Shown here: in pieces, positions 1,369 through 32,912 of the stretch
Numbering within the stretch: the first letter of the stretch is position 1
Layout: each line of letters starts with the position of its first letter
Notes under the pieces: generated by a model
Told to the model about the DNA's origin: nothing
The model's input: the letters and a program-made list of their open reading frames with translations, nothing else
The model's database searches: none
From: a virus
Lineage: Duplodnaviria; Heunggongvirae; Uroviricota; Caudoviricetes
IMG/VR virus record: IMGVR_UViG_2917398303_000001
Length of the DNA: 42,130 nt
Reading direction: 5' to 3' (one strand)
Made by a program: the position numbers and the translations under genes

Positions 1369-1444
1369 GCCGATATAGCTCAGTTGGTAGAGCAGCGCAT
1401 TCGTAATGCGAAGGTCGTAGGTTCGACTCCTATTATCGGCACCA
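1369..1444 (+). tRNA. thrW: tRNA-Thr (anticodon CGU), prophage integration target
   Basis: 76-nt sequence GCCGATATAGCTCAGTTGG...GGTTCGACTCCTATTATCGGCACCA with D-loop, anticodon loop containing CGT, T-loop GGTTCGA and 3' CCA; integrase gene starts 15 nt downstream. Confidence 0.9.
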
Positions 1445-1458
1445 TTTAAATCAATAAG

Positions 1459-2622
1459 TTACACATCATTAGTACCTTCCTTATTTTTTGACTGGGACAA
1501 ATTTGGGACCGATGGGTTCAGAATCGAGTCTATTTGCCGTGCGTGTTCGGTAAGGTGATTAGGCGCGAGGTGAGCATATCGACGAACCATTTCGATAGAC
1601 TCCCAGCCACCCATTTCCTGTAACACTGACAACGGGACTCCGGCTTGAACCAGCCAACTTGCCCAGGTGTGTCTCAAGTCGTGAAATCTGAAATCATCAA
1701 TACCAGCTCGTCTCAGCGCCGCTTTCCAGGCTGTGTTTGCGTCATACCGCATCTTCCTTACTGTTGGCGCTTTCGTTCCGTCTGGTTTGGTACAGCTTTC
1801 CTTATACACAAATACCCAACGGTGATGATTCCCTATTTGTTTTTTCAATACGCGACATGCAGTATCATTCAGCGCAACGCCAATTGCGCGGTTTGATTTA
1901 CTCTCTTCCGGGTTTATCCATGCCACCCGGCGCTGCATGTCTATTTGTTGCCATTCAAGGTTGATGATGTTCGAGCGTCTTAAACCTGTTGCCAGTGCAA
2001 ATTCAACAACAGACTTTAATGGCTCCGGACATTCATCAATCAGCCTTTGTGCTTCATGAGGCTCCAGCCAGCGGATCCGTTTATTCTTTGGTTGAGGCAC
2101 TTTAATAATTGGTGCCTTATCCAGCATTTTCCATTCACGCTCTGCGGCTCTTAGCAGGGCCTTTATAAATGAAAGATGCGTTGCCTTCGTTGCAACGGAC
2201 GCTGGTTTTGGCGTGTATTCTGGAACAGGTTTCCCTTTTTTTCTGCATGCTTCTGCCCTGAGTTTCCAGTTTTCCTCATGACGCCGGTTCGTCATTTTCT
2301 GAATTGCTGAATAAATTTTTGATTCAGTAATGTCTCTTAGTTGCATCCCTGCGAAATGTTGAAGCCAGAATCCGATCCGGCTTTTGTCATCGTCCAGTGA
2401 TTTTTTATGTGCTTTCTCTTCAAGCCACCTGACACACGCTTCCTCGAACGTCATATCAGGTATTTCACCAAGTTTGCTGACCCGCCATGCTTCAGCCTTT
2501 AGCTTGTCATGGAGCTCTGTTGCCTGCCTTTTGTCCTTTGTTCCAAGAGACTGTTTAAATCTTTTACCGTTCGGCAATGTGAAACTGGCGTACCATATTT
2601 CACTTCTGCGGAAGAGTGACAT
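1459..2622 (-). CDS. int: tyrosine-type phage integrase (P4-like family)
   Basis: 387-aa ORF next to the tRNA; C-terminal catalytic motifs ([15 protein letters not shown] ... VRRYAHL) typical of tyrosine recombinases; RBS AGAGGA upstream of the ATG. Confidence 0.9.
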
Positions 2623-18385: not shown

Positions 18386-18530
18386 GTCCGCAGTAAACGC
18401 GCTTCACACGCGCGACTTATGAACACAGAACCTTTCAGGATGACCCTTGAGGATGCCGGTTTGGTGATCGGTGCCTTTCTGTGGGCCGGAATCCTGTGTG
18501 ACAAGGTTCATCACTAAAAGGTGAACACTG

Positions 18531-19073
18531 ATGAATTATCCAACTATCGTTAACGGCATCGATTTCCGAGATCTGATTTTTGTGGCAAACAACGATCCGG
18601 TTACAGATTCTTTTATGGTGGCAAAAGCATTTGGAAAGCTGCCGAAGAACGTAGTTCGTGACATTGAACGAACCATAGAAGCTTGCCCTCCTGAGTTTGA
18701 TACAAAGCTCAACTTTGAGCTTTGCTATAAAAACAATGAGTTACAGAATGGTAAGCCGCAAAAATTCTACCGTCTCCGCAAGGATGGGTTGATGCTTTTG
18801 GTTATGTCCTACACCAAAAAAGAAGCAATGCGTATCAAAATTGCTTACATCAACGCATTCAACTGGATGTACGCCATGCTTCAGGTTGGTCATCGTCAAT
18901 TTGAAGAAGAGCGAAACGCCGTAATGCTGGAGTACATGAAAGAAAAGGATGTCGCCAGCATGTCTGGCCGTCTGCTCAATCGCTGGGGAAAAATTAAGAA
19001 GCCTCAGCTAATGGCGAGAATTGAACGCCTTGAACAGCACGGGCAAACCGTAATCCCCGGACTCACTAATTAA
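18531..19073 (+). CDS. Rha-family phage regulatory protein
   Basis: 180-aa ORF with AAAGGTGA RBS; N-terminal region (VTDSFMVAKAFGKLPKNVVRDIERTIE) resembles the Rha domain. Confidence 0.55.
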   Translation: MNYPTIVNGIDFRDLIFVANNDPVTDSFMVAKAFGKLPKNVVRDIERTIEACPPEFDTKLNFELCYKNNELQNGKPQKFYRLRKDGLMLLVMSYTKKEAMRIKIAYINAFNWMYAMLQVGHRQFEEERNAVMLEYMKEKDVASMSGRLLNRWGKIKKPQLMARIERLEQHGQTVIPGLTN

Positions 19074-19551
19074 CGGCAGTACCACGAAACAACCCAAGCC
19101 AGAAAGTGGGGAAATAACACTGGCAGCCACTGAAAGATGAACCTCCAGCCTTATGGCAAAAAAGATTCTTTGTGGTGGCGGACTGATGGAAAGACATCGG
19201 TTATTGCAGAGACCATTCAATGAGTGGTCTCGACAATGGCTTATACCCTACACGGGATAACTTAACTGATATCCCTTTTAACGGATAAAGGTATTCAAGC
19301 CTGACACATCATGCGCTGTATCGTCGCTGTATTCCCGCATTAACCATGACCGTAGCCCGACGGGGAACTCCTTCTGCGCGAGTGTGCGGGAATAATCAAA
19401 AACGATGCACACCGGGTTTTTACCGCGTTTATGATTCGCGGGGTTGTCCCTCATGCTCGCCAGTCCTGTGCGGGGGTGGAAGAAACAGGACGTGTATTCA
19501 GGTCTGTGCGACCGTGGTCGCACGCATTTCTTTTATTGCTTTGAGGTAGAT

Positions 19552-19761
19552 ATGTCAGTTGCTGTTTTCGAGGCACTCAATGCACGTATTAACCAACTTG
19601 AAAGTAAGCTGAAGGAATACGATCAGCGACAGGCTGAGGCAGATGAGAAGACTCAGAACGAACTTTTCCTGGAGTTTCTTGCCATCGTTCACGAACTGAT
19701 GCCGTTAGTTAATCAGGCGCTGATGACAGGGCTGAAGGATGGAGATTTACACAGTAGGTAA
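19552..19761 (+). CDS. hypothetical coiled-coil protein (69 aa)
   Basis: ATG at 19552 after GAGGTAG RBS; last gene before cos. Confidence 0.4.
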   Translation: MSVAVFEALNARINQLESKLKEYDQRQAEADEKTQNELFLEFLAIVHELMPLVNQALMTGLKDGDLHSR

Positions 19762-19810
19762 ACCTGATCTTCTGTCCTACGGGTCCTTTCCGGCAATCCA
19801 GAACGTTACG

Positions 19811-19822
19811 GGGCGGAAGGCG
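19811..19822. other. cosN: 12-nt cohesive-end site (GGGCGGAAGGCG), flanked by lambda-like cosQ and cosB
   Basis: Flanking sequence (GTTACG | 12-mer | CGCGGGTTTTCGCTATTTATGAAAATTTTCCGG...) matches the lambda cos context, immediately upstream of nu1. Confidence 0.65.
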
Positions 19823-19999
19823 CGCGGGTTTTCGCTATTTATGAAAATTTTCCGGTTTAAGGCGTTTCCGTTCTTCTTCGCCGTAACTTAATGTTTTTAT
19901 TTAAAACACCCTCTGAAAAGAAAGGAAACGACAGGTGCTGAAAACGGGCTTTTTGGCCTCTGTCGTTTCCTTTCTCTGTTTTTGTCCGTGGAATGAACA

Positions 20000-20519
20000 A
20001 TGGAAGTCAACAAAAAGCAGCTGGCTGACATTTTCGGTGCGAGTATCCGTACCATTCAGAACTGGCAGGAGCAGGGAATGCCCGTTCTGCGGGGTGGTGG
20101 CAAGGGTAATGAGGTGCTTTATGACTCTGCCGCCGCCATAAAATGGTATGCCGAAAGGGATGCTGAAATTGAGAACGAAAAGCTGCGCCGGGAGGTTGAA
20201 GAACTGCGACAGGCCAGCGAGACAGATCTCCAGCCAGGCACTATTGAGTACGAACGCCATCGACTTACGCGTGCGCAGGCCGACGCACAGGAGCTGAAGA
20301 ATGCCAGAGACTCCGCTGAAGTGGTGGAAACCGCATTCTGTACTTTCGTGCTGTCGCGGATCGCAGGTGAAATTGCCAGTATTCTCGACGGGATCCCCCT
20401 GTCGGTGCAGCGGCGTTTTCCGGAACTGGAAAACCGACATGTTGATTTCCTGAAACGGGATATCATCAAAGCCATGAACAAAGCAGCCGCGCTGGATGAT
20501 CTGATACCGGGGTTGCTGA

Positions 20520-20545
<26 letters not shown>
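20000..20545 (+). CDS. nu1: terminase small subunit Nu1
   Basis: 181-aa ORF near-identical to lambda Nu1 (MEVNKKQLADIFGASIRTIQNWQEQGMPVLRGGGKGNEVLYDSAAAIKWY...). Confidence 0.97.
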
Positions 20546-24226
<3,681 letters not shown>

Positions 24227-29943: not shown

Positions 29944-30359
29944 GTTTTGCCCTGAAACTGGCGCGAGAGATGGGGCGACCCGACTGGCGCGCCATGCTTG
30001 CCGGGATGTCATCCACGGAGTATGCCGACTGGCACCGCTTTTACAGTACCCATTATTTTCATGATGTTCTGCTGGATATGCACTTTTCCGGGCTGACATA
30101 CACCGTGCTCAGCCTGTTTTTCAGCGATCCGGATATGCATCCGCTGGATTTCAGTCTGCTGAACCGGCGCGAGGCTGACGAAGAGCCTGAAGATGATGTG
30201 CTGATGCAGAAAGCGGCAGGGCTTGCCGGAGGCGTCCGCTTTGACCCGGACGGGAATGAAGTTATCCCCGCATCCCCGGATATGGCGGGCATGACGGAGG
30301 ATGACGTAATGCTGATGACAGTATCAGAAGGGATCGCAGGAGGAGTCCGGTATGGCTGA
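29521..30359 (+). CDS. T: tail assembly chaperone G-T fusion via -1 programmed ribosomal frameshift
   Basis: Slippery heptamer GGGAAAG at 29919-29925 near the end of G; T frame open from 29925 to 30359, as in lambda G/GT. Confidence 0.8.
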
Positions 30360-32912
30360 ACCGGTAGGCGATCTGGTCGTTGATTTAAGTCTGGATGCGG
30401 CCAGATTTGACGAGCAGATGGCCAGAGTCAGGCGTCATTTTTCCGGTACGGAAAGTGATGCGAAAAAACAGCGGCAGTCGTTGAACAGTCGCTGAGCCGA
30501 CAGGCGCTGGCTGCACAGAAAGCGGGGATTTCCGTCGGGCAGTATAAAGCCGCCATGCGTATGCTGCCTGCACAGTTCACCGACGTGGCCACGCAGCTTG
30601 CAGGCGGGCAAAGTCCGTGGCTGATCCTGCTGCAACAGGGTGGTCAGGTGAAGGACTCCTTCGGCGGGATGATCCCCATGTTCAGGGGGCTTGCCGGTGC
30701 GATCACCCTGCCGATGGTCGGGGCCACCTCGCTGGCGGTGGCGACAGGTGCGCTGGCGTATGCCTGGTATCAGGGCAACTCAACCCTGTCCGATTTCAAC
30801 AAAACGCTGGTCCTTTCCGGTAATCAGTCGGGTCTGACGGCAGATCGTATGCTGGTCCTGTCCAGAGCCGGGCAGGCCGCAGGGCTGACGTTTAACCAGA
30901 CCAGCGAGTCACTCAGCGCACTGGTTAAGGCGGGGGTAAGCGGCGAGGCTCAGATTGCGTCCATCAGCCAGAGTGTGGCGCGTTTCTCCTCTGCATCCGG
31001 TGTGGAGGTGGACAAGGTCGCTGAAGCCTTCGGGAAGCTGACCACTGACCCGACGTCGGGGCTGACAGCGATGGCGCGCCAGTTCCATAACGTGACGGCG
31101 GAGCAGATTGCGTATGTTGCTCAGTTGCAGCGTTCCGGCGATGAAGCCGGGGCATTGCAGGCGGCGAACGAGGCCGCAACGAAAGGGTTTGATGACCAGA
31201 CCCGCCGCCTGAAAGAGAACATGGGCACGCTGGAAACCTGGGCAGGCAGGACAGCACGGGCATTCAAATCCATGTGGGATGCTGTGCTGGATATTGGTCG
31301 TCCTGATACCGCTCAGGAGATGCTGATTAAGGCAGAGGCTGCGTTTAAGAAAGCGGACGACATCTGGAATCTGCGCAAGGATGATTATTTTGTTAACGAT
31401 GAAGCGCGGGCACGTTACTGGGATGATCGTGAAAAGGCCCGTCTTGCGCTTGAAGCCGCGAGAAAGAAGGCTGAACAGCAGAGTCAACAGGACAAAAATG
31501 CGCAGCAGCAGAGCGATACCGAAGCGTCACGGCTGAAATATACCGAAGAGGCGCAGAAGGCTTACGAACGGCTGCAGACGCCGCTGGAGAAATATACCGC
31601 CCGTCAGGAAGAACTGAATAAGGCACTGAAAGACGGAAAAATCCTGCAGGCAGATTACAACACGCTGATGGCAGCGGCGAAAAAGGATTATGAAGCGACG
31701 CTGAAAAAGCCGAAACAGTCCGGCGTGAAGGTGTCTGCGGGCGATCGTCAGGAAGACAGTGCTCATGCTGCCCTGCTGACGCTTCAGGCAGAACTCCGGA
31801 CACTGGAGAAGCATGCCGGAGCGAATGAGAAAATCAGCCAGCAGCGCCGGGATTTGTGGAAGGCAGAAAGTCAGTTCGCGGTACTGGAGGAGGCGGCACA
31901 ACGTCGCCAGCTGTCCGCACAGGAGAAATCCCTGCTGGCGCATAAAGATGAGACGCTGGAGTACAAACGCCAGCTGGCTGCACTTGGTGACAAGGTTACG
32001 TATCAGGAGCGCCTGAACGCGCTGGCGCAGCAGGCGGATAAATTCGCACAGCAGCAACGGGCAAAACGGGCCGCCATTGAGGCGAAAAACCGGGGGCTGA
32101 CTGACCGGCAGGCAGCGCGGGACGCCACGGAACAGCGCCTGAAGGAGCAGTATGGCGATAATCCTCTGGCGCTGAATAACGTCATGTCAGAGCAGAAAAA
32201 GACCTGGGCAACTGAAGACCAGCTTCGTGGGAGCTGGATGGCTGGCCTGAAGTCCGGCTGGAGCGAGTGGAAAGAGAGTGCCACAGACAGTATGTCGCAG
32301 GTTAAAAGTGCTGCTACGCAGACCTTTGATGGTATTGCGCAGAATATGGCGGCGATGCTGACCGGCAGTGAACAGAACTGGCGCAGCTTCACCCGTTCCG
32401 TGCTGTCCATGATGACAGAAATTCTGCTTAAGCAGGCAATGGTGGGAATTGTCGGGAGTATCGGCAGCGCCATTGGCGGTGCTGCCGGTGGTGGCGCATC
32501 AGCGTCAGGCGGTACAGCCATTCAGGCTGCTGCGGCAAAATTCCATTTTGCGACTGGGGGATTTACGGGAACCGGCGGCAAATATGAGCCTGCGGGGATT
32601 GTTCACCGTGGTGAATTTGTCTTCACGAAGGAGGCAACCAGCCGGATTGGCGTGGGGAATCTCTACCGGCTGATGCGCGGCTATGCCACCGGTGGTTATG
32701 TCGGTACACCGGGCAGCCTGGCGGACAGCCGGTCGCAAGCGTCCGGGAAGTTTGAGCAGAATAACCATGTGGTGATTAATAATGACGGCACGAACGGTCA
32801 GATAGGTCCGGCTGCTCTGAAGGCGGTGTATGACATGGCCCGCAAGGGTGCCCGTGATGAAATTCAGACACAGATGCGTGATGGTGGCCTGTTCTCCGGA
32901 GGTGGACGATGA
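30352..32912 (+). pseudogene. H: tail tape measure protein H, reading frame interrupted near codon 40 (apparent 1-nt deletion in an A-run)
   Basis: ATG at 30352 overlaps the T stop and opens a 47-codon ORF ending at 30495; the rest of H continues in the -1 frame as the 785-aa ORF 30555..32912; the frames switch at the run of six A at 30463-30468. Confidence 0.75.

Follow-up and report, generated by a model that had tools for sequence, protein, structure and literature searches.

A probable natural cosN allele in a thrW-integrated lambdoid prophage: a variant of the predicted cohesive end beside a lambda-type terminase

Introduction

Can a terminase almost identical to that of phage lambda act on a cos site in which five of the twelve bases of the predicted cohesive end have been exchanged? 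The question is raised by a lambdoid prophage contained in a stretch of DNA of 42,130 nt (hereafter the window), in which the 12-mer standing where the lambda cohesive end would be expected, GGGCGGAAGGCG (19811-19822), is found in a single copy. An earlier note on this DNA had drawn attention to the apparent mismatch between the enzyme and its site.

The tolerance of cosN to sequence change has been documented in lambda and its relatives. Differences at bp 7-12 are common among lambda-like phages and have no measurable effect on cos cleavage (Feiss et al. 2015, PMC4669245). Natural variants of this right half include N15 and phiD326, which are altered at bp 9 and 12, and Gifsy-1, which is altered at bp 8, 9 and 11 (PMC4669245). 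Many right-half mutations of cosN likewise have a minimal phenotype (PMC4669245, citing Xu & Feiss 1991). C11G, for example, has no phenotype, while the symmetric change G2C lowers yield about 10-fold (PMC4669245), an asymmetry between the two halves that depends on nearness to cosB (PMC4669245, citing Hang, Catalano & Feiss 2001). With lambda terminase, the yields from cosN-lambda and from cosN-N15 are equal, and the natural variation has been read as a sign that there is no selection on bp 7-12; a 2-bp mismatch between the ends of a chromosome costs about 4-fold in yield (PMC4669245). Elsewhere in the site, cosQ is a highly conserved 7-bp sequence and the CG pairs at the nicks are conserved (PMC4669245). 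The nuclease centres of the terminase large subunit (TerL) are not highly sequence-specific, and it is assumed that small subunit (TerS) bound at R3 anchors TerL so that it nicks between bp 12 and 13 (Murialdo & Feiss 2022, PMC9026076). The published tolerance data span single changes and the 2-bp N15 allele (PMC4669245), whereas in the prophage described here five of the six right-half bases are replaced.

The cos site of the prophage

Read directly, positions 19805-19855 of the window are GTTACG / GGGCGGAAGGCG / CGCGGGTTTTCGCTATTTATGAAAATTTTCCGG. The left end of lambda is GGGCGGCGACCT, and the same 12 bases are annotated as 'cos site' in the lambda-derived DE3 prophage. The lambda sequence given in the earlier note is thus correct, and alignment to the lambda left end confirms that the 12-mer of the prophage is a different one. 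Counted from the top-strand nick, the two sequences differ at bp 7, 8, 9, 10 and 12, the right half reading AAGGCG where lambda has CGACCT. The changes are therefore confined to bp 7-12, as in the right-half variants already described, with the left half and the CG pairs kept. By homology, the nicks are predicted to fall at 19810/19811 on the top strand and at 19822/19823 on the bottom strand, and the CG dinucleotides outside both of these positions are retained (ACG/GGGCGGAAGGCG/CGCG). The coordinates of the site and of the genes around it are collected in Table 1.

Table 1. Features of the prophage and of its cos region (positions in the window)
Feature	Position	Strand	Basis
tRNA-Thr(CGT) at thrW	1369-1444		
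Integrase	1459-2622	-	
Rha-family regulator with ORF11CD3 domain, between Rz and cos	18531-19073		
ORF without Pfam match, between Rz and cos	19278-19523	-	
ORF without Pfam match, ending 20 bp before cosQ	19444-19761	+	
cosQ, GGGTCCT, packaging-termination signal	19781-19787	+	Alignment to lambda prophage junction
cosQ-cosN spacer, ending in conserved TTACG; middle (19794-19804) diverged from lambda	19788-19810	+	Alignment
cosN, 16 bp: 12-bp predicted cohesive end plus CG outside each predicted nick	19809-19824		Homology
cosN left half, GGGCGG, unchanged from lambda; functionally constrained half	19811-19816	+	Alignment; constraint per PMC4669245
cosN right half, AAGGCG (lambda CGACCT), variant allele; 5/6 bases differ, C11 alone kept	19817-19822	+	Alignment
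cosB R3, AGGCGTTTCCGTTCTT, critical TerS binding site, identical to lambda	19860-19875	+	bp 50-65 from nick; R3 definition from PMC9026076
R3-R2 interval, IHF site I1 in lambda	19876-19918	+	I1 position from PMC4669245, PMC9026076
cosB R2, inverted; reverse complement CTGTCGTTTCCTTTCT, identical to lambda	19919-19934	-	Alignment
cosB R1, CTGTCGTTTCCTTTCT, identical to lambda	19960-19975	+	Alignment
Nu1, terminase small subunit (TerS), 181 aa, 177/181 identical to lambda	20000-20545	+	Pfam Phage_Nu1, E = 5.5e-101
A (gpA), terminase large subunit (TerL), 641 aa, 638/641 identical to lambda	20520-22445	+	Pfam GpA_ATPase, GpA_nuclease

Rotational symmetry of cosN stands at 8/16 in the prophage as against 10/16 in lambda, the symmetric pair G2/C11 being retained and the G3/C10 and G6/C7 pairs of lambda lost; a modest effect on the rate of cleavage is possible for this reason. 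The GC content of the 12-mer is 10/12 in both alleles, and the nearest-neighbour duplex dG is -17.8 kcal/mol for the variant and -18.2 kcal/mol for lambda. Moreover, the common cosN alleles all hold at least four G or C among the six bases of the right half. This preservation of GC content and duplex energy across alleles suggests that the constraint on bp 7-12 is one of annealing strength and not of base sequence.

Around the 12-mer, little has changed on the cosB side. cosQ lies 23 bp upstream of the predicted top-strand nick, the distance found in lambda, and to the left of cosQ the sequence is unrelated to lambda. The layout of cosB is of the complex kind, with R3 at bp 50-65, an interval for a predicted IHF site, an inverted R2, and R1. 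The R3-R2 interval has three substitutions relative to lambda (at 19881, 19883 and 19907) and is unchanged in length. Over the 177 bp from cosN to the start of Nu1 there are five differences from lambda, none of them in an R element, and only two from the closest carriers of the canonical 12-mer; the distance from cosN to the Nu1 start is again that of lambda. The sequence features by which a lambda-type cos site is recognised (PMC4669245) are all present: the cosQ spacing, cosN with its CG pairs, a complex cosB, and the Nu1 and A genes directly downstream. The proposal of the earlier note that a lambda-type cos site here adjoins a near-lambda terminase is borne out by cosQ, the CG pairs, the R elements and the two terminase proteins.

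Comparison with known phages places the site close to lambda in everything other than the right half and the sequence to its left. Lambda itself shares the cosQ, the cosQ-cosN spacing, GGGCGG, the CG pairs and R3, R2 and R1, and its terminase subunits are 98-99.5% identical; it differs in the right half, in the diverged spacer and to the left of cosQ. The cosN of N15 and phiD326, GGGCGGCGTCCG, is also a natural variant in the right half only and has G at bp 12 like the prophage, but it has two differences from lambda where the prophage has five. By experiment, lambda TerL uses cosN-N15 as efficiently as cosN-lambda. N15 has a simple cosB, consisting of R3 only, and a TerL that is about 65% identical to that of lambda, whereas the cosB and TerL of the prophage are of lambda's own type. 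The Salmonella phage Gifsy-1, known here from the descriptions in PMC4669245 and PMC9026076, combines its right-half variation with a tripartite cosB; other bases are involved, and C11 is changed in Gifsy-1 but kept in the prophage. The prophage does not belong to the cohesive-end identity group of lambda, 21, 434 and phi80, which have the overhang GGGCGGCGACCT, as it shows five mismatches to it. That its ends would not anneal to lambda arms, as the earlier note had supposed, is a reasonable corollary, the predicted ends agreeing at 7 of 12 bases.

Distribution of the variant allele

The variant is widespread in Escherichia coli. A 44-bp probe over the site matches 3,946 records among complete E. 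coli genomes, and in 159 of these the best match is at least 99% identical; the variant is thus carried by about 3% of the 5,426 complete genomes and about 4% of the matching records. A direct scan of IMG/VR for the variant returned 78 contigs. When any 12-mer was allowed between lambda-type flanks, at least three variant contigs were found among the 120 IMG/VR loci listed, nearly all of the others being canonical. A further 31 contigs with the variant come from metagenomes of human gut and food samples. Among GTDB species-representative genomes there is one true match, in Escherichia sp. E1V33; a second, in a high-GC Solirubrobacterales MAG, has no lambda-like flanks and was dismissed as a chance match. 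No contig starts or stops at the 12-mer, either among the 78 loci in IMG/VR or among the 31 in metagenomes.

The 59 phage records that match a short probe over the site include only two with the variant, YDC107_1 and PhiR46_1, both deposited as complete genomes. The status of PhiR46_1 as a propagated phage is taken from the fields of its GenBank record alone; that record names ECOR13 as host, a strain name unlike the strain number in the name of the phage. Literature searches yielded no usable paper describing PhiR46_1 or the PV3405xx phage series. A full-text search of the literature for the 12-mer returned solely an unrelated paper on Ginkgo, and for this reason the allele appears to be undescribed in searchable papers. 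It is nevertheless a case in which the type of variation is documented and the allele, though absent from the searchable literature, is abundant in sequence databases.

Two kinds of element carry the variant, namely integrating prophages and N15-like plasmid prophages of about 46 kb with a protelomerase, RepA and SopA/ParB. An E. coli 'plasmid' of about 46 kb with variant cosN, NZ_CP101200.1, is an N15-like telomere plasmid prophage, as is phage YDC107_1. The N15-like carriers combine a protelomerase, a CyRepA1-family replication protein and SopA/ParB with a lambda-type Nu1/A head-tail module. Several further plasmid records of 46-68 kb match the 44-bp probe.

It is common for one E. coli genome to have several lambda-type cos sites, and as many as seven occur. 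Two separate variant cos loci are found in the 56-kb contig IMGVR_UViG_3300045988_113976, and the isolate genome IMG 2778261458 has two contigs, each with a variant cos. The variant allele can thus be present twice in a single contig or a single host.

The terminase genes and the two alleles

Relative to lambda, gpA of the prophage carries the substitutions N37S, A175V and I459V. Lambda-type TerL proteins, defined as those more than 95% identical to gpA, were compared residue by residue between 33 carriers of the variant 12-mer and 34 carriers of the canonical one. At no position were the two sets fixed for different residues. N37S and I459V segregate among canonical carriers too, while A175V occurs in the TerL of this prophage only. 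Furthermore, three TerL sequences and five Nu1 sequences occur in identical form with both cosN alleles. Since identical proteins pair with either allele, these comparisons argue against co-evolution of the terminase with the cosN allele and suggest that one enzyme serves both sites. The pairing of identical TerL and TerS with either allele is, together with the preserved predicted annealing strength, what is new in this analysis.

A family of cosN alleles and the origin of the right half

The variant is one of several cosN alleles. In a scan of cos loci from which those with T at bp 12 were excluded, the most frequent alleles were GGGCGTCAGGCG (30 loci), the N15 sequence GGGCGGCGTCCG (29 loci), the allele of the study prophage GGGCGGAAGGCG (25 loci) and GGGCGGCGACCG (7 loci), with rarer alleles also present. 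The GGGCGTCAGGCG allele, from enterobacterial lambda-like cos sites in IMG/VR, shares with the prophage both AGGCG at bp 8-12 and the spacer haplotype ending in ATCCAGAACGTTACG. It differs at bp 6 (T) and at bp 7 (C), and it is mostly linked to non-lambda sequence on the cosB side (CGCAGATTCTTGC..., CGCAGTTTTTC...). The T at bp 6 of GGGCGTCAGGCG falls in the supposedly constrained left half, and this allele is seen beside cosB flanks of lambda type and of non-lambda type alike. In the alleles GGGCGACGGACG and GGGCGACGTCCG, bp 6 is A.

The spacer provides a clue to the history of the right half. Among 222 loci, the haplotype ending in ATCCAGAACGTTACG (19794-19810) accompanies GGGCGTCAGGCG at 12 loci, GGGCGGAAGGCG at six and the canonical 12-mer at none; all 18 loci thus have 12-mers of the AGGCG type, and the haplotype is missing from the roughly 114 canonical carriers. 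This exclusive association suggests linkage between the right half of the 12-mer and the right-arm side of cos. Over the 30 bp from cosQ to the nick, the prophage has one difference from the nearest GGGCGTCAGGCG carriers and at least three from every canonical carrier. The variant 12-mer as a whole is found with at least ten different left-spacer haplotypes. As the left 30 bp are closest to GGGCGTCAGGCG carriers while the 177 bp to the right are close to lambda and to canonical carriers, the right half looks like an allele that travels with left-side sequence and was joined to a lambda cosB and terminase by recombination. A series of recent point mutations as the source of the right half is disfavoured by the clustering of the differences and by their linkage to the left spacer. 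A mosaic junction lying exactly at the bottom-strand nick was also considered and set aside; the boundary is located only to the interval that begins at bp 12 and runs rightward as far as the next informative site.

Function of the site and alternative explanations

The reading preferred here, to which we give a probability of roughly 0.85, is that the prophage has a working cos site of the lambda type, with a naturally occurring cosN allele. It is predicted to be functional because every constrained element of the lambda site is intact and all of the changes lie in bp 7-12, exactly the pattern that the published picture would lead one to expect. Nu1 would bind R3, R2 and R1 of the unchanged cosB and so position gpA for two staggered nicks, one in the bottom strand between bp 12 and 13 and the other 12 bp further left in the top strand. 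The expected products would be 12-nt 5' overhangs consisting of GGGCGGAAGGCG and its complement, cleavage at these positions being predicted from homology with lambda. Within the cosB-proximal bp 7-12, TerL would be placed by the anchoring of TerS and not by reading of the bases, leaving the sequence free to vary provided that the two ends of one chromosome are complementary and anneal stably. Since both ends are cut from the same site, they would always be complementary and cyclisation would be unaffected. The allele itself would be an old, recombining polymorphism common to integrating lambdoid prophages and N15-like plasmid prophages.

The paradox of a near-lambda enzyme beside an unlike site is resolved if R3-bound TerS positions TerL for the bottom-strand nick (PMC4669245). 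The difference in sequence to which the earlier note had pointed is real; the surprise attached to it is not, given that bp 7-12 tolerate change (PMC4669245) and that the allele is widespread. With all five changes in the change-tolerant half and a frequency of about 3% in complete E. coli genomes, the variant is an unremarkable natural allele, and variation of its kind is both documented and explained mechanistically. The possibility of a sequencing or assembly artefact, raised in the same note, can be given practically no credence: the identical 44-mer is found in independent assemblies from many laboratories and sources, with exact matches in E. coli genomes, phages, IMG/VR, metagenomes and GTDB genomes, and this recurrence of the 12-mer excludes it. 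It is hardly more credible that the terminase has changed to recognise a new right half. The three substitutions in gpA, of which I459V lies in the nuclease domain, could be taken to point that way, yet two of them are present in canonical carriers, the third is found in a single variant carrier, the study prophage, and the residue-by-residue comparison of 33 with 34 carriers, with its identical TerL and Nu1 proteins on both sides, largely refutes the idea.

It could be argued instead that the prophage is defective and its cos site a mutated remnant without function, as the tape-measure gene carries a frameshift and the exact Rz-to-cos segment is found at full length in 0 of 5,426 complete genomes. 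Decay of this kind is most improbable. The same allele is present in hundreds of independent genomes whose terminase genes are open and identical to those of lambda, and in phage records deposited as complete genomes, and decay would not strike five clustered bases beside 177 bp at 1-3% divergence. There is likewise only a slim chance that the nicks fall elsewhere, giving an overhang whose length or sequence is not that of the 12-mer chosen by homology. Two of lambda's symmetric base pairs are lost from the right half, and the nick positions assigned here are indeed homology-based; the position of the nick, however, is set by its distance from R3 (cited in PMC4669245 and PMC9026076), and neither this distance nor the cosQ spacing nor either flanking CG pair has changed.

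The remaining alternative concerns the persistence of the allele rather than its cutting, and can coexist with the working natural allele preferred above. The right half might be a balanced polymorphism that blocks the cyclisation of chromosomes with mixed cos ends or limits cos-bearing satellites. On this account, which we regard as unlikely, mismatches at 5 of the 12 bases would probably prevent the cyclisation of a chromosome running from a lambda cos to a variant cos or the other way round; polylysogens, mixed concatemers and cos-bearing satellites are possible sources of such chromosomes. The alleles would then be maintained as sticky-end compatibility types, partly isolating co-resident phages from one another or phages from satellites while the packaging specificity of cosB stays the same, and this too we would call doubtful. 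In its favour, discrete alleles (CGACCT, AAGGCG, [T]CAGGCG and CGTCCG) coexist on near-identical cosB and terminase backgrounds, five of six right-half bases differ against a divergence of 1-3% in the 177 bp to the right, single E. coli genomes often have several lambda-type cos sites, and the published cost of a 2-bp mismatch is already about 4-fold in yield (PMC4669245). Against it, the presence of the same variant allele on both contigs of IMG 2778261458 shows that co-resident phages need not differ, the penalty for mismatched ends is transient, and the variation at bp 7-12 has been interpreted as absence of selection (PMC4669245).

Implications

If the site is cut as predicted, the natural tolerance known for lambda terminase would be widened from two or three changes in the right half to five of six, with the enzyme unchanged. 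Such tolerance agrees with the published model in which R3-bound TerS, and not base reading, positions the bottom-strand nick. DNA of phages with the variant allele should not anneal or ligate to lambda arms, and literal searches for the lambda 12-mer miss the cos site in roughly 3-4% of E. coli lambda-type prophages. The practical weight of the finding is small, and a new question would arise only if selection turned out to act on the alleles as compatibility types.

Prophage context

Integration at thrW, also supposed in the earlier note, is supported by the tRNA-Thr(CGT) and the integrase on the minus strand (Table 1); a proA-like ORF precedes the tRNA. Upstream of cos lie holin, lysozyme and Rz genes and a Rha-family gene, while downstream the head/packaging and tail ORFs are of lambda-like size, those for head and packaging being open. 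The segment from Rz through cos to Nu1 (18400-20600) is covered to more than 83% in no complete E. coli genome.

The tape-measure gene, a homologue of lambda H, is split into a 47-aa ORF (30352-30495) and the remaining 785 aa, which start from 30555 in another frame. An A-run at 30463-30468 has six residues in the prophage and seven in the close relative NZ_CP101200.1, a deletion of 1 nt. The split is either a real, tail-defective frameshift or a homopolymer sequencing error; because of this deletion, the study prophage may itself yield no infectious particles. Upstream of cos, positions 19505-19535 (tgtgcgaccgtggtcgcacgcatttctttt) form an apparent GC-rich hairpin followed by a T-run, which by eye resembles an intrinsic terminator on the plus strand.
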